Made by a program: the position numbers and the translations under genes | The notes under the pieces: model-generated | What the model was told of the DNA's origin: nothing | The model's input: only the letters and a program-made list of their open reading frames with translations | Databases searched by the model: none | Shown here: positions 1 to 40,528 of the stretch, in pieces | Layout of the letters: each line of letters starts with the position of its first letter | Position numbering within the stretch: position 1 is the first letter of the stretch | Virus record (IMG/VR): IMGVR_UViG_3300011918_000001 | Reading direction: 5' to 3' (one strand) | Length of the DNA stretch: 40,528 nt | DNA from: a virus

Positions 1-79
1 CACGAGGATAATTTTGAGAAGCATAAATTCCAAGAATAGGCATTAGGCAATATCCCCCACTATCAAGAATGTATTGGAT
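1..79. repeat. Terminal direct repeat copy 1; circular-assembly overlap or short terminal redundancy
   Basis: Bases 1-79 (cacgaggataattttgag...gtattggat) recur exactly at 40450-40528. Confidence 0.95.
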
Positions 80-1600: not shown

Positions 1601-2032
1601 TTATCGGGTATAGTGATTGAGATATTCGATTGCTGAACAAAGTACATTGATGTCATCTTTTAGTAGTCCTAGTCCTGTATTGCATTTGTGGCATAAGACA
1701 CCACGCTTTTGTCCTGTTGTGTGATCGTGGTCTGCGTGAAATGCCATAGACCCAGAATCGGATGTTTTGCAAATTGCACATTTGTAATCTTGTTCTTTTA
1801 ATTTATTATCATAATCTTCTTGAGTAAAACCTGATGTCTTAAAACGATTCCATCGTCTTAATCTTTCATTGTTCTTTAATCTTGATTCTTCTGACGGCTT
1901 GTATTTAGACCTACAAACCTTACATTGTGTATGGTGACCGTCAGGTCTGTTTTTGTTTTTTGAAAAATCTTTTAGATACTTTTTTTCTTTACAAGAAGAG
2001 CACTGTTTATTTGGAGATCTTTTATTTGTCAT
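1601..2032 (-). CDS. Endonuclease VII / HNH-superfamily nuclease
   Basis: CAICKTS...FHADHDHTTGQKRGVLCHKCNTGLG matches the recombination endonuclease VII signature, and there is an N-terminal CxxC..CxxC. TAATG overlap with the upstream gene. Confidence 0.8.
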   Translation of the reverse strand: MTNKRSPNKQCSSCKEKKYLKDFSKNKNRPDGHHTQCKVCRSKYKPSEESRLKNNERLRRWNRFKTSGFTQEDYDNKLKEQDYKCAICKTSDSGSMAFHADHDHTTGQKRGVLCHKCNTGLGLLKDDINVLCSAIEYLNHYTR

Positions 2033-11817: not shown

Positions 11818-12491
11818 TAGCGCAGGCCTCCGAACTCTTGCATCATAATTGCATAGGCATCAGTAGCACGTACGGTCTTTGCCTCTGAAGTTGCTTCCAA
11901 CTTTTCTGTAATAAATTGTTCCTCGTCCACTCCACCCTTGGTGGTGACAAAACCTTTTCCAGCGGTTTGAACGCTAGGTTGCTTACGCTGTTCAGCGTTA
12001 ATCATCTTGAGATACTTGGCTTTTTCTGCCTTAGTTAATTTACGCTCAAGTAGATCTACTGCAATAGTGTCAAGAAGTTTAGCGGTTTGAGATGCGCTAG
12101 TTACATAGGTTTGACGAGTAGTTGTTGGTCCACTATCGCCTCCCTCTTCATCGCCTGAGATAATGCTTGTAAGAACGTCATATCGCTTTGTAGGAGTGGT
12201 TGCACCGATCATCTTATCTAGTGCTATCTGACCCTGGTATCGCTCTTCTAACTTTGCTAGAGCTGTATAATACTTAAGGTCAAACTTGCTTGATACTTTA
12301 CCAGTCCAAATACCTGCTTCTTTTAATCTTTCAGCCAAAGCAAGACGTGCATCGTTAGATGCCTGTGAAATGCCCTTTACGAAAACATCAAATGCAACCT
12401 CGCCACTGGTGGATGACCCGCTAGTTTGTGTTGCAGGAGAACGCATTGCTTGTGTTCTTGCAGCATCTGGACCGGAAGTTGGTTCAGCCAT
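11817..12491 (-). CDS. Virion-block protein, function unknown
   Basis: 224-aa ORF, overlap-coupled on both sides. Confidence 0.65.
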   Translation of the reverse strand: MAEPTSGPDAARTQAMRSPATQTSGSSTSGEVAFDVFVKGISQASNDARLALAERLKEAGIWTGKVSSKFDLKYYTALAKLEERYQGQIALDKMIGATTPTKRYDVLTSIISGDEEGGDSGPTTTRQTYVTSASQTAKLLDTIAVDLLERKLTKAEKAKYLKMINAEQRKQPSVQTAGKGFVTTKGGVDEEQFITEKLEATSEAKTVRATDAYAIMMQEFGGLR

Positions 12492-15400: not shown

Positions 15401-17316
15401 CAAGGGCTACCACCGATAGCAAGGTGGACCATTAAGTCTTCAGATGCGTTACGAATAGCATAGCGTGGACCAGCAAGGGTTAGGAATGACCAGTATCCAG
15501 TCATATTATCTACCCACTGCTTGTTTGCTTGACCAAACATTCTGTTAATAAGACCGCTACGCGCTGCTGCTCTGTCAATATCTACAAGGCTAGGCGTGGT
15601 CATAAAAGGATTGTAGTCAGATGGGATTGCACCAAGGTCTTGAAAGTCATCGGCAAAGTTGGCTACAGAAAACTTAGCATCACCTTTAGTAACAGTCTGG
15701 TTGACAATCTTTTGACCAGCTTCTGTAAGGTTTAGACCGCGTGCTTCTGCGATAGTACCCCAGATGCCCTTGACCATTTCCTTACGCTGACCTATTTCAG
15801 TTGATGCTTCAAAGGTTTCTGCAACCATTCTTGCATCGTACTTAGTCATTACAAGACGTGCCAAGCGGTATACCTGTGTTGAGGCATCTGCTGCAGTTAC
15901 ATCAAATACATCGTCCTTGAACATAGGAGCGATATTAAACTTAGCCTTGAACTTATCTAAGCGTTCTCCGATTGCCCTAGATGATAAACGTAGAACACCT
16001 TTTATGTCTTGGGATTGCTTTATCTTTTCACCAAGAACTGTTGCATCTTCTGTAAGTGTCTTACGGATTCCATCTGTATCTGGTAGTTGACCGTATAGGT
16101 CATCCATAATTCTAGGAGCAAACTTATCAATGTTAATTACTTTATCAGCACCAGTAACGATTGCTATACGTGCTTTGCGTTGGGCATCTAAGCGTGGAAG
16201 GATAATGCGCTTGCGTCCAACTGAACCTTTTAGTAGTCCTAAGGCTTCTTCTGTATTTAACAGGAAAGCCTTTGCAGAGTTTGCGTCTACTACCTCAGCC
16301 TTTTGGAATACTCTAATTACTTCTTGACCAAATTCAGGAGCAAGTCTCTTAAGAGAATCACGTGCTTCTACTAAATCTTTACCCTTAGCCTTAGAGTTCT
16401 GCAGTCCTGTGTACTTAGCCAAGGCTGATCCATACTCGTTCCAAAATGCTGCAGCGTTAGGATTAGCAAAGTAATCTGCTACCTTATCGCCTTTAGTAAT
16501 AACATCAAGTGAATACTTGCTTATCACATACAAAGAGCGTAACTTTGATGCAACCACAAGTGGATCTGCAAACAAGCGGTATGCTGCATCTGTTACACCA
16601 GAGACTAAACCATAGGCTAGTCCGTTCTTTTCTAGTGCTTCAGGAAGAATAGCGTTGGCAAATTGACGACCTGGAGAAAACTTAGCTCTGTCTACCTCTG
16701 CAAGAGTGTCCTTGAATAACTCACGTTCACCTTCAATATCATTTACATTAGCAATAGTCTTGTTGCGTGGATCTGCAAGCATAATGTACTTTTGTTGTTC
16801 AGGTGTAGCCGTTGCAAATATCTTTGATACATCTTCGCCAGCGTTGATACGCATAGCAATATCTACTGCATCGCGTCCATACTTTGCTCTGGCGTTTTCG
16901 ATACGTCCTTCATTAAATACTTTGTCGCCTTTGTCGTTTGCTTTATCCCAAGCAAAGCCAACTTCGCCCTCAGATAACGGAATAGCAATAGCGCGATAAG
17001 CGCGAGTCATAGCATCAGATGCTTCGATAACACCCTTAAAGGCAAGTGTTAATGGGTTATAGTTAGCAGCATAGTGCCAAGCACTTCCAAGCCAACCACG
17101 AGATGGCTTAGTAGTAGGATCTTCTACACCGTACTTTTTAACAAGGTCAGATTGCTGGTCAGGAGGCAGTGCTGCATACTTTGCTGCAGCTACCTCTTTA
17201 GGAAGGTTAGATAGTTCTCTGTGTACAAAAAGAGATTTAACTAAATCATCAACTTGTTTTTTGGGCTGACCTTGAAGGTTAGCAGCTAACGCTGCTGCTT
17301 TAAGATTATCACTCAT
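12484..17316 (-). CDS. Giant virion protein (1610 aa), internal or ejection protein candidate
   Basis: The longest ORF in the genome, lying between portal and scaffold. I could not assign any catalytic motif confidently. Confidence 0.85.
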   Translation of the reverse strand: MSDNLKAAALAANLQGQPKKQVDDLVKSLFVHRELSNLPKEVAAAKYAALPPDQQSDLVKKYGVEDPTTKPSRGWLGSAWHYAANYNPLTLAFKGVIEASDAMTRAYRAIAIPLSEGEVGFAWDKANDKGDKVFNEGRIENARAKYGRDAVDIAMRINAGEDVSKIFATATPEQQKYIMLADPRNKTIANVNDIEGERELFKDTLAEVDRAKFSPGRQFANAILPEALEKNGLAYGLVSGVTDAAYRLFADPLVVASKLRSLYVISKYSLDVITKGDKVADYFANPNAAAFWNEYGSALAKYTGLQNSKAKGKDLVEARDSLKRLAPEFGQEVIRVFQKAEVVDANSAKAFLLNTEEALGLLKGSVGRKRIILPRLDAQRKARIAIVTGADKVINIDKFAPRIMDDLYGQLPDTDGIRKTLTEDATVLGEKIKQSQDIKGVLRLSSRAIGERLDKFKAKFNIAPMFKDDVFDVTAADASTQVYRLARLVMTKYDARMVAETFEASTEIGQRKEMVKGIWGTIAEARGLNLTEAGQKIVNQTVTKGDAKFSVANFADDFQDLGAIPSDYNPFMTTPSLVDIDRAAARSGLINRMFGQANKQWVDNMTGYWSFLTLAGPRYAIRNASEDLMVHLAIGGSPWGLAKSRYLSTRVNTALEGARKTKTWSDNPLGGVLRILNKNEAAKFEAEITAVDDMIVKARDEIKLKREAMKITTDPVVKASLAAEIETIKQTTAGGAVGQTRRIVATALTSGRVNRYRQALGMKPMFEEEAAILAEHIVYGNLDNTMSLVSEGAGNFATGGDFITRSTIFTRSHGVRSEAFVINEPKAEKYGIAKGGRKFESRSLGNRDEAALLTWLMRINYYANDRLGAVALANLDNKEVAIAKIMDWMQKNPSFRKEAQLAAKNIDERQHAEIVYNRAAEIFEKRGTAAGAGKEINVDLLNKIRVLNDQGDYIISGQLSLDDVSRLDDADIPAYVLGPQLVPLSESGNVTASLMSKGWTWLGLANSRMSRQPIVFNEIINIRKQMKKSGFEEAYIASVVSKVDQTNPKKIAIATDRAKRQFAEIVEERAVSQTLQYVDNPLVRTQLAFGARNFSRFYRATEDFYRRMSRVIAYNPMAIRKAALTYDGIAHNGWIQEDDQGEKYFVYPGIEPIYTAVRNAMVAVGLPADFKTPFPVQFGAQVKMLTPSLNQDSLIPTFSGPLAGVSMKVISNLVDVAGAPGAADTITQLSMGKYAIGRSFVSSFLPAHVNRLYETMSTDERDSQYASAWRKAVTYLEAGGHGLPQNFDETGNLIPPSIQEQEEYRQRVKNTVLGILGTRFVYGFFAPASPQVQLKADMADWIKDNGKANFKQAWNGLLDQYPGDYDAAMAKWVELFPNQIPFTIPESEKKTVAIIRYAEESGTFVEQNKDLFERYPQGAAFLIPHKSGFSWDAYKTMKDMGLKYNKRVDDYLREVQTAADLQVYYSKKNDYETSLKSKITDFERTMARNEFQAWAKTFKAGRPLLQEELSEGGKKAIERINAIDDLRKMLNDKTVTTRGSVQKPLKEMLDAYDSYKMQRQALDTVSGTTNLVAFMKDSTIVRIRELSKANENTMSAYNTLFASLLGDTDG

Positions 17317-23334: not shown

Positions 23335-23640
23335 ATGAATACTTATAAGTATATTTATGAGGATCTTAAGCAGACTATTACTAACGGTGAAGATATGGAA
23401 AGTATCCGCGACAATAGTGGAGAATGGATCGATGGCTATCTTCCGATTTACAATAATAATATTATTGAAGAATGGAAAGATATGCCTAGCGAATACGATA
23501 ATCGCGGTAGTGCAGAATTAGGAATTCCTGGCGATATATCGATCATAGCTTTAATGCAATTAGATTTATATCTTTACTATTCCGACGTATTCTTTCAAGT
23601 ACTTACCGATATCGCGGAAGAATTGGAGAGTGTTGCATAA
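23335..23640 (+). CDS. Acidic early protein (101 aa)
   Basis: First early ORF, rich in Asp/Glu, preceded by AAAGGG. Confidence 0.7.
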   Translation: MNTYKYIYEDLKQTITNGEDMESIRDNSGEWIDGYLPIYNNNIIEEWKDMPSEYDNRGSAELGIPGDISIIALMQLDLYLYYSDVFFQVLTDIAEELESVA

Positions 23641-23831
23641 TGATTACACACGACAAGCCTATGAGCTCAACACACTTAATCCTATGCTTATCCGGTGATA
23701 TGGAGATAGATCCTGGCCTAATTGTGGAGACTATTAAGGAAGATCCGGATCTAATGCGGGTAGTACGCTCATATGGCGCGGGAGACTTTACCTACGCGCA
23801 AGTATTGGACACGCTAGCAGACTACTTTTAA
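23640..23831 (+). CDS. Small acidic early protein (63 aa)
   Basis: TAATG coupling to the previous ORF. Confidence 0.6.
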   Translation: MITHDKPMSSTHLILCLSGDMEIDPGLIVETIKEDPDLMRVVRSYGAGDFTYAQVLDTLADYF

Positions 23832-23913
23832 TCTAGTTGCGAGACTATCGGCTAGGGCCTTAGATCCCTAGCCGGTGGCCGGTAACTAGGCCGGAAAGTG
23901 AAAGGGTTAAATA

Positions 23914-24516
23914 ATGGATAAGGTTATGCAAGACACTAAGCTAGACACGCTCACAATAAGCGCGGGAGATCTAGCAGACTTACTATCTGGCGCAAGTGTA
24001 GCTATGGATAAGGGTAAGGATAGTATCTCGCGCTTAGGTAGCGTGTACCTATCGGCTACCGGTGGCAAGGTAATCGCTAAGGCTAGCGATAGATATCGCC
24101 TAATCGTAGGAGAGATTACACTAGCGGGAGAGAGTGAGCTAGGAGAATGCCAGATCCGCGCTAATGACGTAAAGAATATCCTGGCCACCATAAAGGCTAA
24201 CAAGGTAGCGGGAGAGATTACCCTTACACGTGTAGGCGATAGCCTAAGCGTAGCTATCGGCGGCACTAGCCTAAGCGTGTATCTTGGTGGAGAGACTTTC
24301 CCACCTTATGAGCACCTATTAGCGGGAGAGAGTGAACCGGTAGCCGGTATATCCTTTAACGCTACCTATATGGCAGACTTTGGCAAGGTACCTTGTTCGC
24401 ATAAGGGTGGCCAGCTAGTGGTGGAGTTTATGGGAGATAACAAGCCTATTAAGGTAACTATTCCGCACAATAAGATTACCTGGAATGCGTTGCTTATGCC
24501 TATGCGTGTAAGGTAA
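23914..24516 (+). CDS. Truncated DNA polymerase III beta-clamp (DnaN)-like protein
   Basis: ASDRYRLIV matches ATDGHRLAV, GETFPPYEHLL matches GRFPDYRRVL, ISFNATYM matches IGFNVSYV, and the C-terminal ALLMPMRVR matches YVVMPMRL. It is only 200 aa, against about 370 aa for DnaN. Confidence 0.7.
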   Translation: MDKVMQDTKLDTLTISAGDLADLLSGASVAMDKGKDSISRLGSVYLSATGGKVIAKASDRYRLIVGEITLAGESELGECQIRANDVKNILATIKANKVAGEITLTRVGDSLSVAIGGTSLSVYLGGETFPPYEHLLAGESEPVAGISFNATYMADFGKVPCSHKGGQLVVEFMGDNKPIKVTIPHNKITWNALLMPMRVR

Positions 24517-24609
24517 TTAGTTGCGTACTATCTTATTCTATCCTAATACGGTAGAGTAAGGTAGTCTGCGCCTAATGGTTAGGGCAGAATATGGGAGAGG
24601 AAGATAGCG

Positions 24610-24909
24610 ATGAAGACTAATGAGTTATTGGGAAGCAATACGTATACGCAAGCTATAGCGTGGGAGCAAGCGGGAGAGAGTGTACGCCTAGGGCAGAAAA
24701 TCCGCGTAACCTTTCAAGGGTTAGATACTAAGTCCGGCTATGCCTATCGCGAGGAAGGATCTTGGTTAGGTATTCGCTACACGTGGAAGTCTATGCGTTG
24801 GTGGAGTTTACTTAATTACAATAACCCACTAGTTAAATTGGAAGCGCAGGAACTAACCGGTGAGGGTAAGCCTTATTGGATAACACTATGGGAGAGAGAG
24901 GTAGCGTAA
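24610..24909 (+). CDS. Hypothetical early protein
   Basis: ORF track. GGGAGAGGAAG SD upstream. Confidence 0.65.
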   Translation: MKTNELLGSNTYTQAIAWEQAGESVRLGQKIRVTFQGLDTKSGYAYREEGSWLGIRYTWKSMRWWSLLNYNNPLVKLEAQELTGEGKPYWITLWEREVA

Positions 24910-25064
24910 TGCAATACATAACACCGCGAGGTTGGCTAGTAACTGGGATCTTAATTGGGTTATCTATTTGGGGACTATGGGAGGTGGCGAGCCACTTACT
25001 ATGGACGGGCAACGGCTGGGAATGGTGCGAGGATCTATTAACGTGCGAGGGAGAGGGTAAGTAA
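24909..25064 (+). CDS. Small membrane protein (51 aa)
   Basis: TAATG-coupled start gives MQYITPRGWLVTGILIGLSIWGLWEVA, with one TM segment. Confidence 0.55.
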   Translation: MQYITPRGWLVTGILIGLSIWGLWEVASHLLWTGNGWEWCEDLLTCEGEGK

Positions 25065-25217
25065 ATGGAGACTATTAACCAATTAGTAAACGAGATTTAT
25101 GAGGATAATTATTCTCATCTCGAATTTGATGACAATATGGGAGGGGACTGTGACTGTCATATTCATACTACCCTTAAAACTATCGTTAAATATTGGCACG
25201 AGGAAGAGAGCAAGTAA
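25065..25217 (+). CDS. Small acidic protein with a CDCHIH motif (50 aa)
   Basis: Hand-translated as METINQLVNEIYEDNYSHLEFDDNMGGDCDCHIHTTLKTIVKYWHEEESK. GGGAGAGGG SD upstream. Confidence 0.5.
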   Translation: METINQLVNEIYEDNYSHLEFDDNMGGDCDCHIHTTLKTIVKYWHEEESK

Positions 25218-25492
25218 TGAGCTACGACTACCGCGTTACTTTCGTAACCGATTACCTAACAATTACTACTAACGTATGCCTAGAGTTAGACGATACGATA
25301 GGTAACTTAAGTGATGAAGCCTATGAACAGGCCACTATCAATGGTATGAATAACATAGAGGACGAGCTCGGAAAGATAGACGAGACGATCATCAACGACA
25401 TAACCGTTACCCTATTACTAGATGAGGAAGAGATAGAGCTAGGAAGTTTTGGTGAGTTTCCACCGGTACACGTGGAGGTGTCTAATGGATAA
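25217..25492 (+). CDS. Very acidic early protein (91 aa)
   Basis: The TAATG-coupled start gives MSYDYRVTF. The ORF track extends to 25193. Confidence 0.65.
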   Translation: MSYDYRVTFVTDYLTITTNVCLELDDTIGNLSDEAYEQATINGMNNIEDELGKIDETIINDITVTLLLDEEEIELGSFGEFPPVHVEVSNG

Positions 25493-25625
25493 GTGTAAAT
25501 TCTGCGGGTTACGCGGGTTGGTGCTATCTACTATCAATGCAGACTATTCTTGCGAGCATTGTGGAGAGTGGCAAGAGGCTAAGTTAAATAGTGCGTGGGA
25601 GGTAGTGGGCTATGAGCTACGGTAA
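25485..25625 (+). CDS. Zinc-ribbon micro-protein 1 (46 aa)
   Basis: MDKCKFCGLRG...YSCEHCGEWQ, with CxxC...CxxC. Confidence 0.5.
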   Translation: MDKCKFCGLRGLVLSTINADYSCEHCGEWQEAKLNSAWEVVGYELR

Positions 25626-25731
25626 GTGTTGGGTATGTGGTTGCCTAATGAGTGGAGATAGCCAGACAGTAGAGGGTAAGGTTACCTGCGATAGATGTGG
25701 GTGGAACTCCGGGAAAGATGGGAGCTACTAA
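25612..25731 (+). CDS. Zinc-ribbon micro-protein 2 (39 aa)
   Basis: MSYGKCWVCGC...VTCDRCGWNSG. GGGAGG SD upstream. Confidence 0.5.
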   Translation: MSYGKCWVCGCLMSGDSQTVEGKVTCDRCGWNSGKDGSY

Positions 25732-25862
25732 TGAAGATGGATACGTGGGACGAGATGAGATGTCCGGAGTGTGATATGTGGTTTTACCCGGAGAAGAATA
25801 TGCGTAAGTGGTGCGAGAAGTGCAACGACAAGGAACTACTAGAGGGAGAGGGTAATGAGTAA
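25731..25862 (+). CDS. Zinc-ribbon micro-protein 3 (43 aa)
   Basis: MKMDTWDEMRCPECDMWF...KWCEKCNDKE. TAATG coupling. Confidence 0.5.
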   Translation: MKMDTWDEMRCPECDMWFYPEKNMRKWCEKCNDKELLEGEGNE

Positions 25863-25944
25863 GTGTAAAGAAAATAAATGTAATAATGAAGTGGATACCT
25901 GGTATTACTGTGACGATCACTTTAAGGGAGACGATAATGAATAA
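25855..25944 (+). CDS. Cys-rich micro-protein 4 (29 aa)
   Basis: MSKCKENKCNNEVDTWYYCDDHFKGDDNE. GGGAGAGGG SD upstream. Confidence 0.35.
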   Translation: MSKCKENKCNNEVDTWYYCDDHFKGDDNE

Positions 25945-26095
25945 AGAATACTTAGAGGCTAAGTTTAATCTGTGTATCAATGAGGCAGAGAAGGACTTAC
26001 AACAGGAGGAGATAGCAAGAGCTATCGCTAACCTACGCAGGGCTAACTCAGCCCTGTCGCAGTTGTTTGGGTTTGAGGAGGAGGAGAATGAGTAA
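25937..26095 (+). CDS. Small helical protein (52 aa)
   Basis: The likely start gives MNKEYLEAKF. The ORF track extends to 25886. Confidence 0.55.
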   Translation: MNKEYLEAKFNLCINEAEKDLQQEEIARAIANLRRANSALSQLFGFEEEENE

Positions 26096-26339
26096 CATCT
26101 ATACCATACACCCACCAAAGTCAGACCTGATCTTATTCTATGAGGTGGTAACGCCAGAGGGAGAGAACGAGTGGGGCGGGGCTAGTGCCCAGCAGGCTAT
26201 CCAATGGCTCAGCCTTGCACCAAAGGGTGCGAGAGTGCTGGTATCTGCCTGGGATAGTGATGAGGAGGACGCTCACTTAGTAGGGCAGACGATAGACATA
26301 ACCGAGATTATTCAACAGGCAAGGCAGGTAGGCAGATGA
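26088..26339 (+). CDS. Hypothetical early protein (83 aa)
   Basis: Start MSNIYTIHPP follows GGAGGAGGAG. Confidence 0.6.
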   Translation: MSNIYTIHPPKSDLILFYEVVTPEGENEWGGASAQQAIQWLSLAPKGARVLVSAWDSDEEDAHLVGQTIDITEIIQQARQVGR

Positions 26340-26419
26340 GCTTGGTGTTAGGGATAATCATAGTAATGGTGGTAGCCTATGTGCTTATAGTGTGGGAGGA
26401 CAAGATCAATGGAGAGTAG
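26336..26419 (+). CDS. Possible 27-aa single-TM peptide
   Basis: MSLVLGIIIVMVVAYVLIVWEDKINGE. ATGA coupling. Confidence 0.35.
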   Translation: MSLVLGIIIVMVVAYVLIVWEDKINGE

Positions 26420-26690
26420 GCAAGTAAGCGGGAGACAATCTATCCACTACCGCAATTACAGAAGGGCAAGAGACAAGGCACTTGTGCGCCTAGCGCACCT
26501 ATACCCAGACACATACAAGCAACTGCTTGATGAACAAAGGAGTTTTGATGAGCAAGAGGGCAAGACTTGGATCATTGATAGTAATAGTAGGCTTACTGTG
26601 GGCGTTCATACCAGAGCGAACGCCGTCCCTCCCTTCGGAGATCCCGCAGATGCGGGAGAGGACGAAGGCTACGATGGAGGAGAAGCGTGA
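26409..26690 (+). CDS. Hypothetical basic/acidic protein (93 aa)
   Basis: The N-terminal half is RNYRRARDKALVRLAHLYPDTYKQLLDEQR. The C-terminal half overlaps the next gene out of frame. Confidence 0.5.
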   Translation: MESRQVSGRQSIHYRNYRRARDKALVRLAHLYPDTYKQLLDEQRSFDEQEGKTWIIDSNSRLTVGVHTRANAVPPFGDPADAGEDEGYDGGEA

Positions 26691-26979
26691 AAACAAGGCA
26701 CTTATCATTAGTTACTCAAAGGCACTCGGTTACAACGACAACCAAGTCAAATGTTTGCTCACCTTATGGACCCGTGAATCCCGCCTCGACCACTTGGCTC
26801 GCCCAAGAGACTCTCAGGGCAAACCAAGAAGCTCAGCTTTTGGAATTGCTCAACTCCTTAGAGAGCGTAGTGGACAGCCTGAATTACAAATCCTTCACGG
26901 TCTACGATACCTTGGTCACCGCTACGGAGGCAGTGCGTGTCGCGCTCTTGGGCACTCCGATAGACGAGGGTGGTACTGA
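26548..26979 (+). CDS. Secreted or anchored lytic-transglycosylase-like protein (SLT-type, ends in GWY)
   Basis: LWTRESRLDHLA...SSAFGIAQ...LRYLGHRYGGSACRALGHSDRRGWY-stop. The start at 26548 follows AAAGGAG and yields the signal peptide MSKRARLGSLIVIVGLLWAFIP. Alternative starts are 26527 and 26674. Confidence 0.65.
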   Translation: MSKRARLGSLIVIVGLLWAFIPERTPSLPSEIPQMRERTKATMEEKRENKALIISYSKALGYNDNQVKCLLTLWTRESRLDHLARPRDSQGKPRSSAFGIAQLLRERSGQPELQILHGLRYLGHRYGGSACRALGHSDRRGWY

Positions 26980-27617
26980 TGAGACTTCTTGATCTTTACT
27001 GCAAGGCTGGAGGAGCGAGCAAAGGCTACGCTGACGCTGGCTTTGAGGTAGTAGGCATTGACATCAAGAAGCAGAAGCGGTATCCCTTTAAGTTCATACA
27101 GGCAGATTGCTTAGAGATACTGCAAGACTTAGATTACTTGCGTACCTTTGATGTGATTGCAGCTAGCCCACCTTGCCAAACACACTCGCGCACTCAGCAT
27201 TTACGCAATGCTCAGGGTAAGAGTACAGACAAAGTAGATCTGATACCTCAGACACGAGAGGCATTGATCGCTAGTGGTGTGCCTTACGTGATTGAAAATG
27301 TACCAGGTGCGCCATTGATTAACCCTGTTCAATTCTGTGGCTCATCCTTTGATCTAAAGGTACGTAGACACAGACTCTTTGAGTCAAACGTGCAACTGAT
27401 AGGTTCAGTATGTGACCACAAGAAGCAGGGAAAGCCAGTAGGTATCTATGGATCTATGCGTGATGAGATACCTAAAGGTGGACACACTGCAAAGAGTATT
27501 GAACAGGCACGCGAAGCAATGGGAATTGACTGGATGATCTGGGGAGAATTAGTAGAAGCTATCCCACCACGCTATACTTGGGAGATAGGTAAGCAACTAA
27601 TACTTATGATAGACTAA
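26970..27617 (+). CDS. Compact DNA (cytosine-5) methyltransferase
   Basis: Motif I DLYCKAGGAS, motif IV ASPPCQTHS, motif VI IENVPGA, RRHRLFE, and motif X-like EAIPPRY. Only 215 aa. Confidence 0.85.
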   Translation: MVLMRLLDLYCKAGGASKGYADAGFEVVGIDIKKQKRYPFKFIQADCLEILQDLDYLRTFDVIAASPPCQTHSRTQHLRNAQGKSTDKVDLIPQTREALIASGVPYVIENVPGAPLINPVQFCGSSFDLKVRRHRLFESNVQLIGSVCDHKKQGKPVGIYGSMRDEIPKGGHTAKSIEQAREAMGIDWMIWGELVEAIPPRYTWEIGKQLILMID

Positions 27618-28072: not shown

Positions 28073-28452
28073 AGTTGCACACCTTCCTCGATAGGTAAAT
28101 ACCCCACTAACTTGTCAACCTTTTCAATCCTATCAAACTCTGTAGTCGCTGGCATTTGGTGATTAAACCATACTGGTTCTGGTAAATCTAACAGGTCAAA
28201 GGAGAAGATACCTTTGGGTGTGGAGTTGATGTAATAGGGAACAAGATCACGCTCTGCTGCTTGGGTGATGAGCTTGCGATACTTCATCTCTTCAATCAGT
28301 AAGGTGTCATAGTGTGTAGCCCTGCACTTTAACTCTATGTAGTGACCTGCTTGCTTGGAGATACAGTCATAGGCATCAAAGATCCCCTCAGACTTTACTA
28401 AATCTGGGTACAAACCCTCACGCAAGAAGGTAAACAATAACTCTTCGTTCAA
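28069..28452 (-). CDS. Hypothetical protein, possible PD-(D/E)xK nuclease
   Basis: FDAYDC...HYIELKCR resembles D..ExK. The assignment is weak. Confidence 0.35.
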   Translation of the reverse strand: MNEELLFTFLREGLYPDLVKSEGIFDAYDCISKQAGHYIELKCRATHYDTLLIEEMKYRKLITQAAERDLVPYYINSTPKGIFSFDLLDLPEPVWFNHQMPATTEFDRIEKVDKLVGYLPIEEGVQL

Positions 28453-29081
28453 GACCAGGGACTCACTCCGCCTAGATTATCCTGCAACCTACGCATTGAC
28501 TGAGAACATCTGCGATCTGCTGTAGAGATGGCACACTCTAGTACCTGTGCTATCTGTTGTAAGGTAAAGGATTCGTGATGGCGCATACGCAAGATAGCCT
28601 GGTCCTCTTGGTCTAGTTTTAGAAAACCTTTCTTGATGTCAATGAGGTTAGCAAGTAGGTTGCCACCTTCTGCCGGAGATGATGAACCTTTAGGTTGCCC
28701 ATCTCTAATCATCTCTTGTGCTTGCTCTAATACTGTGCCATCTATGACCGATGCAATAACAAAGGGGAGCAACTGACCAAGGGTAGCTGACTCGTAGTAA
28801 GCCTCATCATTGGTCTGGTATCCAGACTTAGCAGCCTTCTCCTTGCGTGCGTATCGCTCTGCTACACGCCTCATCTGCCAGGCTATGCGCTGCTCATTAT
28901 GTCTGCGCCTATCTTCGATAGGTTCCATTAGATCAACTGTGTGATCTTCTACTCTAGTCATAGCCCACGCCATCAACTCCTGCTTTACATCATCTCTTTC
29001 AACGTAGGCTTTGTACCTACGGTGGATAGTGTTAGCAACACTAGGCACTAGGTCATAGATTACTGGGTGTAGTTCAGTCAT
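28449..29081 (-). CDS. RNA polymerase sigma factor (sigma-70/ECF-like)
   Basis: Region-2-like DDVKQELMAWAM, and a region-4 HTH reading DQAILRMRHHESFTLQQIAQVLECAISTADRRCSQSMRRLQ. Confidence 0.7.
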   Translation of the reverse strand: MTELHPVIYDLVPSVANTIHRRYKAYVERDDVKQELMAWAMTRVEDHTVDLMEPIEDRRRHNEQRIAWQMRRVAERYARKEKAAKSGYQTNDEAYYESATLGQLLPFVIASVIDGTVLEQAQEMIRDGQPKGSSSPAEGGNLLANLIDIKKGFLKLDQEDQAILRMRHHESFTLQQIAQVLECAISTADRRCSQSMRRLQDNLGGVSPWS

Positions 29082-31386: not shown

Positions 31387-31618
31387 CTACCAGTACTACC
31401 TTGTTGATCTTGTAAACGATGTTGCCTTCTTCGTCTTTGACTAACTCAACAACACCAGATTGCAGCAACGCACCAACGAAGTTGGTTACATCTACCTTGA
31501 GAGCATCAAGTTCTGCACGCAACCCATTAGTAGCATCACGCACTGCATCAATCCTAAGATTATCTCTGTACTTATTTGATAACTGTTCAGACATTATACC
31601 CTCCTTGGTATCCTGCAA
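31364..31618 (-). CDS. Hypothetical helical protein
   Basis: ORF track, 84 aa. Confidence 0.55.
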   Translation of the reverse strand: MQDTKEGIMSEQLSNKYRDNLRIDAVRDATNGLRAELDALKVDVTNFVGALLQSGVVELVKDEEGNIVYKINKVVLVDESVQQD

Positions 31619-32435
31619 TCGTATCTTTTCTTAACATCCAACCGAACTCATTTTGATCTGAGATCTGTACTGCTGCATAGTTTACCAGTAGCTGTGCATA
31701 CTTACTGCCATCAGCAGTATGTGCGCCAAAGCGATTCTTCACCGGTGCTACCTTGAGTATGCCTTGCGTTGGGTCATAGCCCAGTGTAAGTATCAGTGCA
31801 GGTAACTGACTGACCTTTCCGTGAATTGCTCTGCGATGAGGTGGGTTACTAGGTGAGCCATACTCTGACTGTTCTGATACGTGGTGCAGTACCATCACAC
31901 AAGCCTCAGTCTTGCGTGCCATATCGTGTAGCTCCATCATAATTGCTCTAAGTCCAGCCCATTCGTTGTCCGTCTCAGCGGTGATGTTCATTAAGTTATC
32001 AATGACTATCAACTCAGGTGGCTGACCATAGAGTTCTACGTAGGCCCTGATCTCTAACTCCAAGTCATCAATGTTTGGAGATGAATCAAAGACCCACTTG
32101 ATGTGTGAAAGTTTATCTAAGTGTGCATTGTAATACTTACTATCGTTAGACAAGTTTGCCTCTACTGTCACTTGTGAGTGACCAGATAGATGAGACACAG
32201 ACCTCATCATTACGGTAGTGGTATCAGTATCTGCGGAGAAGAAAAGTGTAGGAACTTTGGCTTTGATTGCATATATCAGAGCGAACATAGACTTACCAGC
32301 ATTAGGTGCTGCAGCTACCATACATACCTGGCCTCTGCGAAACTTAATACCTTCTGTTGCTAACCCACTCCACACGTCAGGCAGTGGTGTTGCTTTGGTA
32401 AGCACTCCACTCCAAGCGCGGGAAAGATTAAGCAC
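31587..32435 (-). CDS. RecA-fold ATPase, DnaB C-terminal-domain-like helicase candidate
   Basis: Walker A AAAPNAGKS, Walker B LIVIDNL, and VMVLHHVS. At 282 aa it has no DnaB N-terminal domain. Confidence 0.7.
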   Translation of the reverse strand: MLNLSRAWSGVLTKATPLPDVWSGLATEGIKFRRGQVCMVAAAPNAGKSMFALIYAIKAKVPTLFFSADTDTTTVMMRSVSHLSGHSQVTVEANLSNDSKYYNAHLDKLSHIKWVFDSSPNIDDLELEIRAYVELYGQPPELIVIDNLMNITAETDNEWAGLRAIMMELHDMARKTEACVMVLHHVSEQSEYGSPSNPPHRRAIHGKVSQLPALILTLGYDPTQGILKVAPVKNRFGAHTADGSKYAQLLVNYAAVQISDQNEFGWMLRKDTIAGYQGGYNV

Positions 32436-32697
32436 TTCTGTCCTCCTGATTTAATCTAATATTACGTTGTCTACGGATGCTTCTGCGTTCTAGGTCGGCA
32501 AGGCCACCCCAGATTCCGTGTAATTCGTTATGGATTCCCCACTCTGCACACTCAATTTTGTGTGGACAAGAATGGCAAATAGATTTTGCAATCTTTGCTT
32601 CAGTCTGACTAATGCCACCTGATTCTTTCTCAGGAAACCAGTAGTCACCACCTACAGTTGCACAACTAGGAGCTTCGTATTGACTTGGCTCCCGCAT
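32428..32697 (-). CDS. whiB: WhiB-like transcription factor
   Basis: C-x24-CHSCPHKIEC followed by the GIWGG turn and a basic tail. Confidence 0.9.
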   Translation of the reverse strand: MREPSQYEAPSCATVGGDYWFPEKESGGISQTEAKIAKSICHSCPHKIECAEWGIHNELHGIWGGLADLERRSIRRQRNIRLNQEDRSA

Positions 32698-32700
32698 TAG

Positions 32701-33087
32701 TTAGCGAACCCAGATAGTGTCGCACTTATCTGGCGCACCCTTAGGTGCTGCACACATATAACCTGACCACGGACCCTTTTGTCCTACACCTGATCGCAGT
32801 GACATCACACCGTGACGGCAGGTATTGCCTGATGCTGGTTGTGTATTGTAGTTAGGTTCCTTAGCAGCAACTACTGGTGTTGCATTAAACTGCTGGGCTA
32901 TTGCTCCAACTGTTGGTGCTGGTGTACCACCTGTGAACTCTGCACCTGTTGCTTTAATCAAAGATGCAACCATACCTAGATCATTAAGACCTGTCTCTAA
33001 ATCCTGTACATCTTTTGCGTACAAGTTAATAAGTGTTCCATCTGCTAACTTGTAGTTAATCTGGAACTTTGTTCCCTCTGTAGCCAT
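32701..33087 (-). CDS. Hypothetical protein with a C-terminal Cys/His cluster
   Basis: CRHGVMSLRSG...GPWSGYMCAAP...DKCDTIWV. Confidence 0.55.
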   Translation of the reverse strand: MATEGTKFQINYKLADGTLINLYAKDVQDLETGLNDLGMVASLIKATGAEFTGGTPAPTVGAIAQQFNATPVVAAKEPNYNTQPASGNTCRHGVMSLRSGVGQKGPWSGYMCAAPKGAPDKCDTIWVR

Positions 33088-34035
33088 TTACTTACCTCCA
33101 CTTTGTTTTACAGATAGTCGCTGACTCTCAGCTCCTACCTTCTTAGGGACAAACCCTAATAGTTTTTCTACCTCATCACTGTCAACTGACTCGCGCCCTT
33201 TAACAGTTGTCCAACTTACTTCGATACCTGAATTAGTAGTACCCAGTACTCCTTCGAAGGATGTCTTCAAAGATTCCTGCTGCTTTTCTAACTCTTTGAT
33301 CTGTACTGCTAACTGTAGATACAACAATGCGTTCTTGTCAACATCTGCATCATCAATCAGTACATCACTGACTGGTGTACGTTCTTTTTTTAGACCAACG
33401 CATCCCATCTGCCCACTTGCGTCATAGAACTTGCAGTAGAACTGACAGTAACTTGCATCCTTTTCTGGTGCTGGCGCTTCCTTTGCTTCCTTAACAGCCG
33501 CTAGCCAACCGAGTGCTTCTAGTGCAATGGACTCATCGTAGTCTTCGGTGTGAACCTTGACATCTCTTTCGTCCCCGTCCCTGGCAATTGCTACCAGTGA
33601 CACTCGGTTGACCGCATAGCCGTTCTTAGCTAGGAGGTAGCCGTATAGCTGCACCTGCCACCGCTGTTGCGTTGATGGAAAGTATCCAAGGTTCTTAATC
33701 TTAGATGTCTTCCAGTCAATCACATCACCGGTGCCTGGTACAAAACAGTCAATGTGTGCTTTCATTCCGTTGTATTCAACTTCGGTTTCAATCAGCACAT
33801 CTGGATTATCTGCTAACGCTTTCTCAATCTCTGCGTGGATAGCAGTACCCATAATCGCAGCAAGTTTTAGTTCGTTATCATTAGTTTCAGGTTGATCGTT
33901 AAGTCGGTACCACACCTTACGACGACAGCCACCTACCTCTGATGGACCAATCTGTACCTGTGTAGATCGTGAACGCTTGGCATCTCCTGCACGTAGTGCA
34001 GTAAGTAATAATTCTTTTGGATCAGTTGCTGTCAT
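33088..34035 (-). CDS. Cas4/RecB-like PD-(D/E)xK exonuclease with an Fe-S Cys cluster
   Basis: GGCRRKVWY, HIDCF...GDVIDWKTSK, QVQLYGYLL, and CQFYCKFYDASGQMGC. Confidence 0.75.
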   Translation of the reverse strand: MTATDPKELLLTALRAGDAKRSRSTQVQIGPSEVGGCRRKVWYRLNDQPETNDNELKLAAIMGTAIHAEIEKALADNPDVLIETEVEYNGMKAHIDCFVPGTGDVIDWKTSKIKNLGYFPSTQQRWQVQLYGYLLAKNGYAVNRVSLVAIARDGDERDVKVHTEDYDESIALEALGWLAAVKEAKEAPAPEKDASYCQFYCKFYDASGQMGCVGLKKERTPVSDVLIDDADVDKNALLYLQLAVQIKELEKQQESLKTSFEGVLGTTNSGIEVSWTTVKGRESVDSDEVEKLLGFVPKKVGAESQRLSVKQSGGK

Positions 34036-34144
34036 TGTTATTCTCTTCTTCTAACTTGTACGCTAAACGACAAGCCTTCCAACCCATATCATAAAAGTAA
34101 TGAGCAGCATACTCATCTGTCATTGGTATTGAATTAACTTCCAT
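34022..34144 (-). CDS. Possible 40-aa ORF
   Basis: MEVNSIPMTDEYAAHYFYDMGWKACRLAYKLEEENNNDSN. It fills the gap between two genes. Confidence 0.3.
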   Translation of the reverse strand: MEVNSIPMTDEYAAHYFYDMGWKACRLAYKLEEENNNDSN

Positions 34145-34152
34145 AGCTCCTC

Positions 34153-34722
34153 CTAGAACCGTTCTTGTACTACTAACTGTATGGGCTTACCAGTGTTAGC
34201 GTCAAGTACCGAAGCAATCTCTACGGCTTTACGGGCGTGTCGCTTTGCATAGGCTAACTCCATATCAGGCTTGACAATTGAATAGAGATAGCCAAGAGCA
34301 AGCTGGCCCCCACTACCGATACCGTACGCTCCGTGATTTGCTTGGAAAAAAGAGAGATCACAAGCAATGCGAAAGATATTACCGTTAAAAGCAATGAGAT
34401 AATCGAAGCCACCATCTTTGTCCACCTTGTTGTAGTCGTAGTTGTTGTCGTTAAACGCTGTAAGAATACTGGGTATAACCTTCTTACCCATAAATTGTGC
34501 TGGCTCTTCACCACGATAGAGCGGTGGCTTCCAGTTGTATGCAAGGATGTCACCTGGTCTAGTGTCCCCTGAGATACCGATGAGATACTTACCGACCTCA
34601 AGAATTTTCGGAGTACTGGTGGCTAACGTTACTAGGTTGTCCTCGGTAATCTGGCTATCAGCCACGAGTACGGCGTAATCAATACCTTCCAAAGCTGCGA
34701 TTGTGGTCATAGGTTTTATCAT
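34153..34722 (-). CDS. Proteasome-beta/HslV-like Ntn hydrolase
   Basis: TTIAALEGIDYAVLVADSQ...TPKILEV...GISGD...YGIGSGGQLALGY. The alternative start at 34710 gives MTTI as in HslV. Confidence 0.75.
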   Translation of the reverse strand: MIKPMTTIAALEGIDYAVLVADSQITEDNLVTLATSTPKILEVGKYLIGISGDTRPGDILAYNWKPPLYRGEEPAQFMGKKVIPSILTAFNDNNYDYNKVDKDGGFDYLIAFNGNIFRIACDLSFFQANHGAYGIGSGGQLALGYLYSIVKPDMELAYAKRHARKAVEIASVLDANTGKPIQLVVQERF

Positions 34723-34871
34723 ACCAGTAACATCGGCGTGTCGTCGCTATGCGACACCTACTAGGCGTGTACAATTCGAGCCGTAAGGCGAGATAAACAG
34801 ACGGCCCTTGTCAGGGCCGAGGCGAAGCCGAGAGGCGACTGACCACAGGAAGGAGCCGTGCCGAGTATACT

Positions 34872-35129
34872 ATGCTCCGTCTACCAATCCTGTCGAAAAT
34901 ACGTCAGCGTATAGCTGACATACGATACCTCCCACAGGTCACAGGAGCCGATTTGCGGGGTTTAGGACCCATCCACGTATGTAGTTGTGGCTCCCAAGTC
35001 TTTAACGTTATGGCCTCCTTTGAAGACTTTGAACTGGTCTGGTACTTCCTCGATGCTACCTGTGTCAACTGCGGTAATCTGGTAGTTGTACCCTGTCCAG
35101 TAGATAAAGATGCGCCACAAACTCACTGA
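34872..35129 (+). CDS. Zinc-ribbon protein (85 aa)
   Basis: CSCGSQVF...CVNCG. The SD is poor. Confidence 0.45.
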   Translation: MLRLPILSKIRQRIADIRYLPQVTGADLRGLGPIHVCSCGSQVFNVMASFEDFELVWYFLDATCVNCGNLVVVPCPVDKDAPQTH

Positions 35130-35460
35130 GATTGACGAAGCAGAACGCACAGGATTGTGCTCAATTTGTGGCCCCACAAGAATAAAGATACGAGACAAGT
35201 CAAAGCCTATCTCTGGTAGGTACCGCTGTAATACCATCTACAAGATCAATCAGATGAAGGCACGCTCTCCCTACCACGCCTATCGCAAGGAGTACTGCGA
35301 GCAGTGTAGCTTTAGACCAGTACACATCTCTCAGTTAGATGTAGACCACATAGACGGTGACCGCTTCAATAATGCGCCACACAATCTACGCACCTTGTGT
35401 GCTAACTGCCACAGACTCAAGACTCACCTATCAGGAGATAGCAACTCAGGCATATTTTAG
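35110..35460 (+). CDS. HNH endonuclease
   Basis: LDVDHIDGDRFNNAPHNLRTLCANCHRLKT, plus an N-terminal CxxC. Confidence 0.85.
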   Translation: MRHKLTEIDEAERTGLCSICGPTRIKIRDKSKPISGRYRCNTIYKINQMKARSPYHAYRKEYCEQCSFRPVHISQLDVDHIDGDRFNNAPHNLRTLCANCHRLKTHLSGDSNSGIF

Positions 35461-35463
35461 GGA

Positions 35464-35496
35464 CAAAAAAAGAAGCCCACCCCTTTCGGGGTGAGC
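35464..35496 (-). terminator. Intrinsic terminator ending the late operon (also faces the HNH islet)
   Basis: On the minus strand it reads GCTCACCCC-GAAA-GGGGTGGGC followed by TTCTTTTTTTG. Confidence 0.8.
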
Positions 35497-35520
35497 CTCT
35501 TCGTTGCCTCGCGCTATGGG

Positions 35521-35724: not shown

Positions 35725-36228
35725 TTAGGGTTTTGTACCGTGCAACTTGCAACAGGTACAAACTTCAGTCTTGTATGCCTTCTTAGCAGGCACGGTTTTC
35801 ATATTGGCAATGATTTGATTAACAACCTTTGGCTGGTTCATCCACCAGAACCAAGGACTAGTATCGTCACCATAACCATCGTTAATAGAAATGTGTAAGT
35901 GTTTTGTGTGCGGGTTGCTACCAGTATAAGGGCGATTTCCAAGGCGAGCCTTGTCCTTCGACCAAATCTTCTTGTTGAAAATAAGGTACTTAACTCGTTT
36001 GTCTTCTTTAAGTTTTTCGAATATGTCACTACAGTCAACCCCACTTTCGGGATCGTGCGTTAAATCAACTGCATACCCTGTGTTGTGGTCTGAGTTAGGA
36101 CTCTGTTTGATGTGCGCTGCCGATGGAAGCAATCCATCTGAGGCTTTCTTCCGAGAAGGTGATATCGCCGTGGCTTGTCGAAGTACAGCAATAGCGGCAG
36201 GTGTGGCTCGTTTCGCAACAGGTTTCAT
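35725..36228 (-). CDS. Endolysin, LAS/M15-type zinc peptidase
   Basis: SDHNTGYAVDL and HTKHLHIS supply the His/Asp/His zinc ligands. Confidence 0.8.
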   Translation of the reverse strand: MKPVAKRATPAAIAVLRQATAISPSRKKASDGLLPSAAHIKQSPNSDHNTGYAVDLTHDPESGVDCSDIFEKLKEDKRVKYLIFNKKIWSKDKARLGNRPYTGSNPHTKHLHISINDGYGDDTSPWFWWMNQPKVVNQIIANMKTVPAKKAYKTEVCTCCKLHGTKP

Positions 36229-36264
36229 TCATAGTTCCTTCTTTGTGAGTGGCTTACAATGTAC

Positions 36265-36642
36265 TTACGGTAACAAGATGATGCGGAAATCAGTAAACTC
36301 GTTAGTCCAAATATTTGTTGCAATAGTTACCGTGCCAGTTGTATTAGATCCTGTGTATGAAGTCTCATCTGAGCCATTAACAAAGATAACCTTGGCAACT
36401 GAACAGTCAACACTTATACCAGTTACGGTAACAGAGCTGACCTTGATTCCATTATTACGACTATTGCCGTATTCAAAGGAAGTTGTAACCCCATCTGAAT
36501 CACAAGCAACTGCCTCATTTTGTCCAACTGCTGCAAAGAATGGGCTGGTAATTACTAACGGTGCAATAGCATAAACAGTTCCTGTTAAAAGTGTTGTGCT
36601 AACTAAAACTGAAATGATGAAAAGTCTTTTAGTGTTTTTAAT
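36265..36642 (-). CDS. Secreted protein candidate (125 aa) with a non-canonical ATT start
   Basis: The hand-translated open frame reads IKNTKRLFIISVLVSTTLLTGTVYA-IAPLV... There is no ATG, GTG or TTG before the last few codons. GAAGGA lies 7 nt upstream of the ATT, and the ATT overlaps the upstream TAA. Confidence 0.45.
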   Translation of the reverse strand: MKNTKRLFIISVLVSTTLLTGTVYAIAPLVITSPFFAAVGQNEAVACDSDGVTTSFEYGNSRNNGIKVSSVTVTGISVDCSVAKVIFVNGSDETSYTGSNTTGTVTIATNIWTNEFTDFRIILLP

Positions 36643-39631: not shown

Positions 39632-40492
39632 TTAGTAAGTGATTGTTCCTGAACCTGTAAACTTATAAATATGATATGAACCAGATGTTGTGTATGTAGG
39701 TGAACCTGTAGTAGATGCTGCTGCTTTAGTAGCACGAAGTATTACTACGCCTGAACCACCGCTTTGACCTGTGTAAACAGAATCACGTTTTGTTCCACCT
39801 CCGCCACCACCAGTATTTGTTGTACCAGCAGTTGCTTCAGTATCAGTACCAGCAACACCTCCAGCGGTTCCACCGCCACCAGTACCACCTGCACCGCCAG
39901 TAGCACCATTGGCACCACCACCGCCACCACCACCTGCGTATGTAACAGATGAACCACTTATAGTTGTTGCGACACCATTACCACCTGCACCGCCATTACC
40001 AACGCCACCTTCTCCACCAATAGCGCCTGCACCGCCACCACCGCTTGCGCCACCATTACTAAAATTACCACGGTAACCTTCATTGGCAGTTCCAGAAGAA
40101 TAATCGTTACTAAGACCCCAGCCATTACCACCGCCTGAGCCACCATTAGCGCCTCTTGTTCCATAATGAACGCCGCCACCGCCGCCGCCTGTAGTAGAAA
40201 CAGTTGCAAATACTGAACTTGAGCCGTTTGCTCCCAAATTGCCTGAAGCAGTTTCATTACTTCCACCACCACCTGCTCCTACAGTTATAGTGTAAGAAGT
40301 TCCTTTAGTTGCTGAAAACGCAGATGGCACAGTACCGCCTCCGCCTGTTACATCAACAGTACAGCGCAAACCACCAGCACCTCCGCCACCACCGCGGTTT
40401 CTAGCACCGCCACCGCCTCCAGCGACTACAAGGTAATCAACAGTTAAAGCACGAGGATAATTTTGAGAAGCATAAATTCCAAGAATAGGCAT
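39632..40492 (-). CDS. Glycine-rich (PGRS-like) virion protein
   Basis: VDYLVVAGGGGGA..., long GGxGG tracts, then GGSGVVILR and a beta-type C-terminus. Confidence 0.75.
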   Translation of the reverse strand: MPILGIYASQNYPRALTVDYLVVAGGGGGARNRGGGGGAGGLRCTVDVTGGGGTVPSAFSATKGTSYTITVGAGGGGSNETASGNLGANGSSSVFATVSTTGGGGGGVHYGTRGANGGSGGGNGWGLSNDYSSGTANEGYRGNFSNGGASGGGGAGAIGGEGGVGNGGAGGNGVATTISGSSVTYAGGGGGGGANGATGGAGGTGGGGTAGGVAGTDTEATAGTTNTGGGGGGTKRDSVYTGQSGGSGVVILRATKAAASTTGSPTYTTSGSYHIYKFTGSGTITY

Positions 40493-40528
40493 TAGGCAAT
40501 ATCCCCCACTATCAAGAATGTATTGGAT
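40450..40528. repeat. Terminal direct repeat copy 2
   Basis: Exact 79-bp copy of bases 1-79. Position 40492 corresponds to position 43. Confidence 0.95.

Follow-up and report, generated by a model that had tools for sequence, protein, structure and literature searches.

A phage-encoded proteasome-family hydrolase with a predicted leaderless transcript and a likely freshwater actinobacterial host

Results and discussion

Family membership, fold and active site

The IMG/VR record IMGVR_UViG_3300011918_000001, a virus sequence of 40,528 nucleotides (nt) that is referred to here as the window, carries on its minus strand, at positions 34153-34722, an open reading frame (ORF) whose product is assigned to the proteasome family of N-terminal nucleophile (Ntn) hydrolases (PF00227 / MEROPS T1) and which, to judge from its sequence and its predicted structure, is apparently active. 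The reading that we favour, and that we regard as probable, is that of a catalytically competent Ntn hydrolase of the “group I” type, which is proposed to self-assemble and to act as a Thr1 peptidase independently of an unfoldase. The original prediction, made from the letters of the sequence, had described the product as an HslV/proteasome-beta-like Ntn hydrolase, and had suggested profile searches, structure prediction and an alignment of homologues as ways of checking it. The fold and the catalytic residues were borne out by all three; an HslV orthologue it is not, and the protein is instead of the BPH/AAH-like “group I” type.

In the profile searches, the best matches lie inside the proteasome/HslV family: the Pfam Proteasome model (PF00227) is matched with 43.6 bits, compared with a gathering cutoff of 22.4 (E = 3.5e-11), and there is a direct profile match to PHROG 1040, “peptidase HslV family” (E = 5.5e-28). 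The structure predicted by AlphaFold2 from the family alignment, with a predicted local distance difference test score (pLDDT) of 97 and a predicted template modelling score (pTM) of 0.91, has the alpha-beta-beta-alpha Ntn fold with its beta-sheet core. Helices H1-H4 are modelled at residues 50-58, 70-88, 135-145 and 152-169, and the last strand at residues 178-183 of 185. When this model was compared with the PDB using Foldseek, the BPH protein of Thiobacillus denitrificans was the top match (template modelling (TM) score 0.77), with HslV and 20S beta subunits at about 0.69-0.75 (probability 1.00 for all three); among predicted viral structures, many phage proteins were matched with TM scores of 0.8-0.9, one of them from Gordonia phage Daredevil. 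The family profile, searched against the PDB, gave E-values of 5e-19 to 1e-13 for HslV, 2e-17 and 4e-16 for BPH, and about 1e-11 for 20S beta subunits, and its Thr aligns with residue 1 of the mature beta5, HslV and BPH chains.

An exhaustive search for relatives, covering 1.84 billion cluster representatives, returned 1864 sequences at E ≤ 1e-3, nearly all of them 165-225 residues long and aligned from residue 1. A 4385-residue match with 18 matching stretches (P0170) was rejected as spurious, being a low-complexity repeat protein rich in Ala, Thr and Ser. Conservation of the active site was assessed in an alignment of diverged relatives, consisting of the query and 120 full-length representatives that are 25-63% identical to it (121 sequences):

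Thr1: 112 of 121, with Ser in 6 more
Asp17: 115 of 121, with Glu in 6 more
Lys34: 121 of 121
Gly47 (oxyanion): 110 of 121
G-S/T-G loop (Ser129-type): 108 of 121, with both Gly residues kept in 120

The query itself has the complete set, i.e. Thr1, Asp17, Lys34, Gly47 and the G-S-G loop. The family also has a near-invariant signature of its own, W60-x-P62-P63 (Met = 1), located between H1 and H2. For 67 unique coding sequences from close relatives, the ratio of nonsynonymous to synonymous substitution rates comes to about 0.07, which indicates that the Ntn gene is under strong purifying selection.

Start codon and leaderless transcript

The 189-residue ORF was confirmed at 34153-34722 on the minus strand, and each of the motifs that had been quoted for it was found. 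The codon of Thr1 (ACC, 34707-34705) lies within M-TTIAAL, that of Asp17 (GAT, 34659-34657) within VLVADSQ, that of Lys34 (AAA, 34608-34606) within TPKILEV, and that of the Ser of the G-S-G loop (AGT, 34314-34312) within YGIGSGGQ, all on the minus strand. The lysine, previously placed at about +33/34, is thus Lys34, which corresponds to the proteasome Lys33 plus one residue. The elements at and upstream of the gene are as follows:

34153..34710, minus strand: Ntn hydrolase coding sequence, 185 residues, with the stop codon at 34153-34155 and the start set by the N-termini of homologues
34720..34722, minus strand: upstream in-frame ATG (189-residue reading), probably unused because it falls inside the -10 hexamer
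34718..34726, minus strand: extended -10-like element TGgTATGAT, 7 nt 5' of the start codon
34738..34757, minus strand: inverted repeat GTGTCG(N8)CGACAC, overlapping the -35 region, with its outer arms conserved in an alignment of 58 upstream regions

The second in-frame ATG (34710-34708) gives a protein starting with MTTIAAL, and had already been put forward as the start. The 120 closest homologues agree with this: their N-termini are mostly MTT[IL], with several LTT/VTT that correspond to TTG/GTG codons at the same position, and 46 of them have 185 residues while only 7 have 189. The comparison indicates that translation begins at the second ATG (MTT...). With the MTT start, a propeptide is absent.

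The hexamer TATGAT (34723-34718) is located exactly 7 nt before the second ATG, and the first ATG (34722-34720) lies within it. In a set of 66 unique upstream sequences, drawn from 80 IMG/VR loci, a TANNNT hexamer is found 6-7 nt before the start in 64, its inner three bases varying freely, and a Shine-Dalgarno-like 4-mer in only 8. A second set of 58 aligned upstream regions (the window and 57 unique relatives) has the hexamer in 56, of which 41 carry TG two bases upstream, as in an extended -10 element. Shine-Dalgarno-like 4-mers are found at 31 of the 50 ORF starts in the window, and none at that of the Ntn gene. A conserved TANNNT 6-7 nt before the ATG, together with the near absence of Shine-Dalgarno sequences, is the layout of a leaderless mRNA, and the suggestion of such a layout for this gene is therefore supported across its relatives. 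The Ntn mRNA would accordingly have no leader, with its transcription start predicted at the A of the ATG or directly beside it.

The inverted repeat is also present in relatives, with the outer arms kept, a loop of 3-9 nt, and a 3' arm that, together with an adjoining GCCG, is nearly invariant. Compensatory changes in the two arms, from GTCGC/GCGAC to GTTGC/GCAAC, set one variant group apart. The repeat could be an operator, a hairpin (for example a leader hairpin of a transcript from an upstream promoter) or something else. A stable RNA hairpin was considered and set aside, given that the single-sequence fold is no better than those of shuffled sequences (z = 0.44) and that the comparative pattern is its sole support. 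Further upstream of the Ntn promoter, at 34802-34819 and 34867-34896 (minus strand), a match to a sigma-70-like promoter (TCGACA-16/18-CATAGT/TAGTAT) precedes a hairpin that resembles a terminator, CGGCCCTGACAAGGGCCG, with a T-rich tail; these may represent a second promoter or an attenuator.

Placement among proteasome-like families

According to the scheme proposed by Fuchs, Alva and Lupas in 2021, BPH is central amongst the proteasome-like families, and HslV, AAH, CPH and PPH radiate from it (PMC8665760). The profile of the phage family is equidistant from HslV and BPH and further away from the beta subunits, which is the position of the “group I” homologues in that scheme (PMC8665760). Sequence and model together point to a “group I” homologue, from the HslV/BPH/AAH/CPH radiation, AAH and CPH being compared by description only.

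BPH (PDB IDs: 5ovs, 5ovt and 5ovu; Fuchs et al. 2018, PMC5777263) is both the best structural match and the best single-sequence match in the PDB. Its pore loop is elongated and acidic, it lacks both a propeptide and an unfoldase, and epoxomicin has been seen bound at its Thr1; the test substrates were not degraded in vitro (PMC5777263). The phage protein resembles it in lacking a propeptide and a partner unfoldase, in having a Thr1/Asp17/Lys33-type site, and in its elongated acidic H2-S7 pore loop, NNYDYNKVDKDGG, which aligns with KEDEDDPYE of BPH. This loop is 13 residues long with a net charge of -1 in the query; the family median is 13 residues with a net charge of -2, and the charge is negative in 82% of members. 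The two proteins are however only 22% identical, the phage loop is about 5 residues shorter than that of Cupriavidus BPH, and the W-x-P-P motif of the phage family is not seen in the BPH alignment. BPH is moreover chromosomal and found in stress-related operons, whereas the gene studied here is phage-borne. While BPH is the top match by structure, the best profile E-values for BPH (2e-17) and HslV (5e-19) are comparable, and the low identity applies here as well.

With the phage-associated “group I” homologues (AAH, CPH and PPH) the protein shares a compact architecture, with H1-H4 and without a C-terminal S12/H5 or a propeptide, a position near BPH and HslV, and an occurrence in Caudoviricetes. 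PPH itself was rejected as an assignment, since it has about 140 residues and no H2, while the phage protein has 185 residues and H2 at 70-88. AAH is a named cluster associated with Actinobacteria, and PPH, AAH and CPH had already been described in phages in 2021 (PMC8665760). Phage-borne proteasome homologues having been catalogued at that time, the gene studied here is a further example and not a new kind. In the same survey, no Actinobacteria-specific phage encoding AAH could be found (PMC8665760). In contrast, the window phage, the Planktophila phages E7 and F5 and the phage DSL-LC01 are (predicted) actinophages with a homologue, and the gap left by the survey, that of an Actinobacteria-specific phage carrying such a gene, is thereby filled.

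No AAA+ unfoldase, HslU, ARC/Mpa or alpha subunit was found in the complete circular genome by PHROG and/or Pfam scans of the plausible ORFs of at least 200 residues, in line with the earlier statement that no HslU, ARC/Mpa or alpha-subunit gene was visible. Two ORFs of this size, at 11063-11686 and 35951-36574 (plus strand), are antisense inside annotated genes; they were not treated as genes and were left unscanned. Just two nucleotide-binding motors were found among the scanned ORFs: the large terminase and, at 31587-32435, a DnaB-like helicase. The latter was considered as a ring ATPase partner and rejected: it belongs to the replicative-helicase PHROG 243 (E = 2e-72) and shares its operon with primase genes.

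Genome, operon and host

The first 79 nt of the window (1-79) are identical to the last 79 nt (40450-40528), and it therefore represents a complete, circularly closed phage genome of about 40.4 kb, with a G+C content of 45.3%. Since a terminator at 35502-35469 ends the late/lysis operon, the Ntn gene is taken as the first cistron of the next one, an operon for replication and recombination, which fits its earlier description as the head of an operon. The surrounding features are:

35469..35502, minus strand: strong intrinsic terminator, a 15-bp stem followed by a T-run, closing the preceding late/lysis operon
34022..34144, minus strand: 40-residue ORF directly 3' of the Ntn gene, with a GGAGG Shine-Dalgarno sequence
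33088-34035, minus strand: Cas4/PD-(D/E)XK exonuclease, operon head (31587..34035)
32701-33087, minus strand: L5 gp49-like protein, operon head
32428-32697, minus strand: WhiB, operon head
31587-32435, minus strand: DnaB-like helicase, operon head

The same operon continues with RusA, primase, methyltransferase and sigma factor genes, and relatives with a 57-62% identical Ntn protein have the same gene order at the operon head. The 40-residue ORF was examined as a possible conserved small partner and rejected, as close relatives either lack it or have unrelated small ORFs in its place; a comparison with the 84-residue ORF that follows the homologue in phage E7 gave no significant similarity (best E-value 0.12).

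The window is collinear with OX376640 (record name LanE43-AprE7), which is the cultured Planktophila phage E7 of PMC10202952. The identity to E7 is 45% for the large terminase subunit (TerL), 52% for the portal, 40% for the major capsid protein, 44% for the DnaB-like helicase and 80% for a gene of the lysis region. Because of this relatedness, and because of the WhiB gene, the host is likely a freshwater acI-type actinobacterium (“Ca. Planktophila”, acI/Nanopelagicales). The window also encodes, in the regions 2032-3995 and 28449-29081 (minus strand), a glycosyltransferase, an SU10-type adaptor protein and a sigma factor; WhiB, sigma factor and glycosyltransferase are the genes singled out for the cultured Planktophila phages (PMC10202952).

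Relatives in other phages

The clade of the window comprises at least 577 IMG/VR loci and its sister clade 144, and at least 3976 related proteins were found at E ≤ 1e-5. In a scan of 185,579 species genomes with a narrower alignment of the family, the only hit was a 91%-identical gene fragment on a 2.7-kb contig, CAZYEM010000408.1, which is binned as “uncultured Bacteroides sp.” and is most likely a mis-binned phage contig. A second large protein search with the family profile led back to this lineage, without any named protein of cellular origin, and a search of plasmids gave only three weak matches, to Paraburkholderia “hypothetical protein” entries.

The homologues of the Planktophila phages E7 and F5 are 29-30% identical to the window protein and that of DSL-LC01 is 32% identical; those of E7 and DSL-LC01 share with it the MTT start and the catalytic residues. 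In E7, the gene (OX376640.1, L084:6001-6537) encodes 178 residues starting with MTTI, from a GTG codon preceded by the Shine-Dalgarno sequence AAGGGG, and directly follows the portal gene, in the order TerL, 151 residues, 74 residues, portal, Ntn, 84 residues, 147 residues and 1764 residues. Of 80 IMG/VR loci from the E7 clade (L085-L164), at least 76 have this portal-adjacent order; their proteins are 43-92% identical to that of E7. Two further loci are uninformative, as they start within or just before the Ntn gene. The two slots thus differ, the window gene being leaderless at the head of the replication operon, where the gene stays in the window's clade down to 57-62% identity, and the E7 gene standing behind the portal with a Shine-Dalgarno sequence and a GTG start. 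The window and E7 proteins are 30% identical, and neither has the other as its closest relative (ranks 29 and 36 of 122). Two lineages of related phages thus have distinct Ntn sub-lineages in different slots, which suggests repeated acquisition or replacement, and a function that is independent of the neighbouring genes.

Homologues are found among genes for DNA metabolism or regulation in the unrelated phages Methanobacterium virus PhiF1, Pseudoalteromonas phage J2-1, Tunturiibacter phage Tunturi_5 and Actinomycetia phage DSL-LC01, and they occur in phages of Proteobacteria and Acidobacteria as well. No gene annotated as AAA+ was seen in the 4-8 kb inspected on each side of the homologues in PhiF1, J2-1, Tunturi_5 and DSL-LC01. 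In DSL-LC01, a 129-kb freshwater phage, the homologue (OQ999401.1, L083:8001-8954) is annotated as “ATP-dependent protease subunit HslV”. It differs from the window protein by a C-terminal tail of about 40 residues that is rich in Lys and Arg, and a WhiB gene comes directly after it; the operon of the window contains WhiB as well.

Proposed function and alternatives

In the mechanism that we propose, the leaderless transcript would be made together with the replication genes, early or in the middle of the infection, and the host methionine aminopeptidase would then bare Thr1; removal of the Met is expected because it is standard for Thr in the second position. By analogy with BPH and HslV, the subunits would form a homo-oligomeric double ring, with the active sites on the inside, and this ring would work without a dedicated ATPase. 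The long acidic pore loop may take part in gating or in substrate selection, as has been proposed for BPH, and the substrates would be peptides or loosely folded proteins of host or phage, cleaved in the early to middle phase. Several points weigh against this proposal. BPH degraded no test substrates in vitro (PMC5777263), so that the idea of an “ATPase-independent protease” is hypothetical even where the closest solved relative is concerned, and no biochemical or other experimental work on any phage member was found in the literature searched. An unfoldase partner supplied by the host is compatible with the sequence analysis. Furthermore, the E7-like homologue is located behind the portal in the late operon, and an early takeover role can therefore not be general.

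The position of the gene in E7 raises the question of a role in the virion, that is of a maturation protease of an unprecedented Ntn type, acting in the virion or prohead on the capsid, the scaffold or a giant internal protein. The place next to the portal, which is kept in at least 76 of the 80 related loci, is the classical slot of prohead proteases, and the PHROG and Pfam scans of the window brought up no canonical prohead protease. Podovirus-like phages with separate scaffolds, however, often need no prohead protease, and none of the Ntn type is known. In the window's clade the gene leads the replication operon with its own promoter, down to 57% identity, the homologues of PhiF1, J2-1, Tunturi_5 and DSL-LC01 have neighbours of the DNA-metabolism and regulatory kind, and the ranks given above set the window and E7 proteins apart. 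We consider a maturation protease improbable, and rate it low within the E7 clade too because all other contexts are non-structural. A combined reading, in which a stand-alone proteasome is recurrently acquired as a near-core gene of acI phages and serves the E7 clade as a maturation protease, with a fold new to that role, appears to us just as doubtful.

A true HslV-type subunit, dependent on an HslU-like or other AAA+ unfoldase of the host, would be in keeping with the names given to these genes: relatives are annotated as “HslV” in IMG and GenBank (IMG also uses “20S proteasome alpha/beta subunit”). The MTTI N-terminus, bared by removal of the Met, is that of HslV (ClpQ), size and fold are similar (TM 0.69-0.75), and the best profile E-value in the PDB (5e-19) belongs to HslV. 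HslV proper was nevertheless rejected as an assignment, since the equivalog models TIGR03692 and NF003964 give 18.6 bits against a cutoff of 157.75 and 19.6 against 137, respectively. The pore loop of the phage protein is long and acidic, whereas the corresponding linker of HslV is short and basic (PMC5777263), and Table 1 of PMC8665760 has no entry of HslV for Actinobacteria, which by inference extends to HslU. The phage genome itself has no HslU or other recognisable unfoldase gene. A true HslV-type subunit that depends on a host unfoldase is, in our view, quite improbable.

The peptidase activity that the favoured reading assumes could also be replaced by a non-proteolytic main role, either as a transpeptidase or ligase like connectase, or as a catalytically silent scaffold. 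Connectase is a ligase from within the proteasome-like family (PMC8665760), and BPH shows no bulk proteolysis in vitro (PMC5777263). Connectase however lacks H1/H2 and has a two-helix insertion between S3 and S4 (PMC8665760), while the phage protein has H1-H4 and no such insertion, and the near-invariant catalytic set speaks against a silent scaffold; a role of this kind thus seems very improbable.

The least probable of these explanations is that of a surrogate beta subunit entering or poisoning the 20S proteasome of the host, as the original prediction had envisaged, even though fold and catalytic residues are shared with PrcB-type beta subunits and proteasomes are common in the phylum Actinobacteria (PMC8665760): the protein is only 13-21% identical to solved 20S beta subunits, has no propeptide and no alpha gene beside it in the genome, scores 30 bits against a cutoff of 224 with the archaeal beta equivalog model (TIGR03634), is predicted to end its fold at strand 178-183 without a C-terminal H5 helix, and has alpha-less homo-oligomers as its nearest solved relatives. 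Homologues occur, in addition, in the phages of Proteobacteria and Acidobacteria mentioned above, and 20S proteasomes are not known as a general feature of either phylum. The part of the host annotation table of PMC10202952 that was consulted has no proteasome or Pup entries, and no paper linking Nanopelagicales with proteasomes was found in the literature searched.

Phage homologues of the proteasome are known from sequence only. The presence of relatives in a cultured pair, Planktophila LanE-43 with its phages E7 and F5, makes their cleavage targets, the formation of rings and the reason for their retention experimentally testable. The phages of freshwater acI Actinobacteria are globally abundant, and the main value of the present gene lies in pointing to an abundant and cultivable phage-host system in which phage proteasome homologues can be tested. 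If the favoured reading is true, the gene would provide a minimal proteasome, ATPase-independent and made from a leaderless transcript, as a useful model of substrate selection by self-compartmentalising proteases in the absence of an unfoldase.

Further features of the genome

Downstream of the portal region, a 1610-residue ORF (12484-17316, minus strand) has no PHROG or Pfam match and is 26% identical to the 1764-residue protein of E7; its product may be an internal or ejection protein. The sole large block of plus-strand genes (23335-27617) coincides with a sharp reversal of the GC skew, which reaches +0.28 at 24-26 kb. One of its ORFs is for a DNA methyltransferase, most of the others match no family, and this block probably represents the early region. 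A gene for an HNH endonuclease (35110-35460, plus strand) lies on the opposite strand in the intergenic region that separates the late-operon terminator from the Ntn promoter. The corresponding stretch of two relatives (L166 and L168) is only about 450 nt long and free of called genes, and the HNH gene looks like a mobile insertion.

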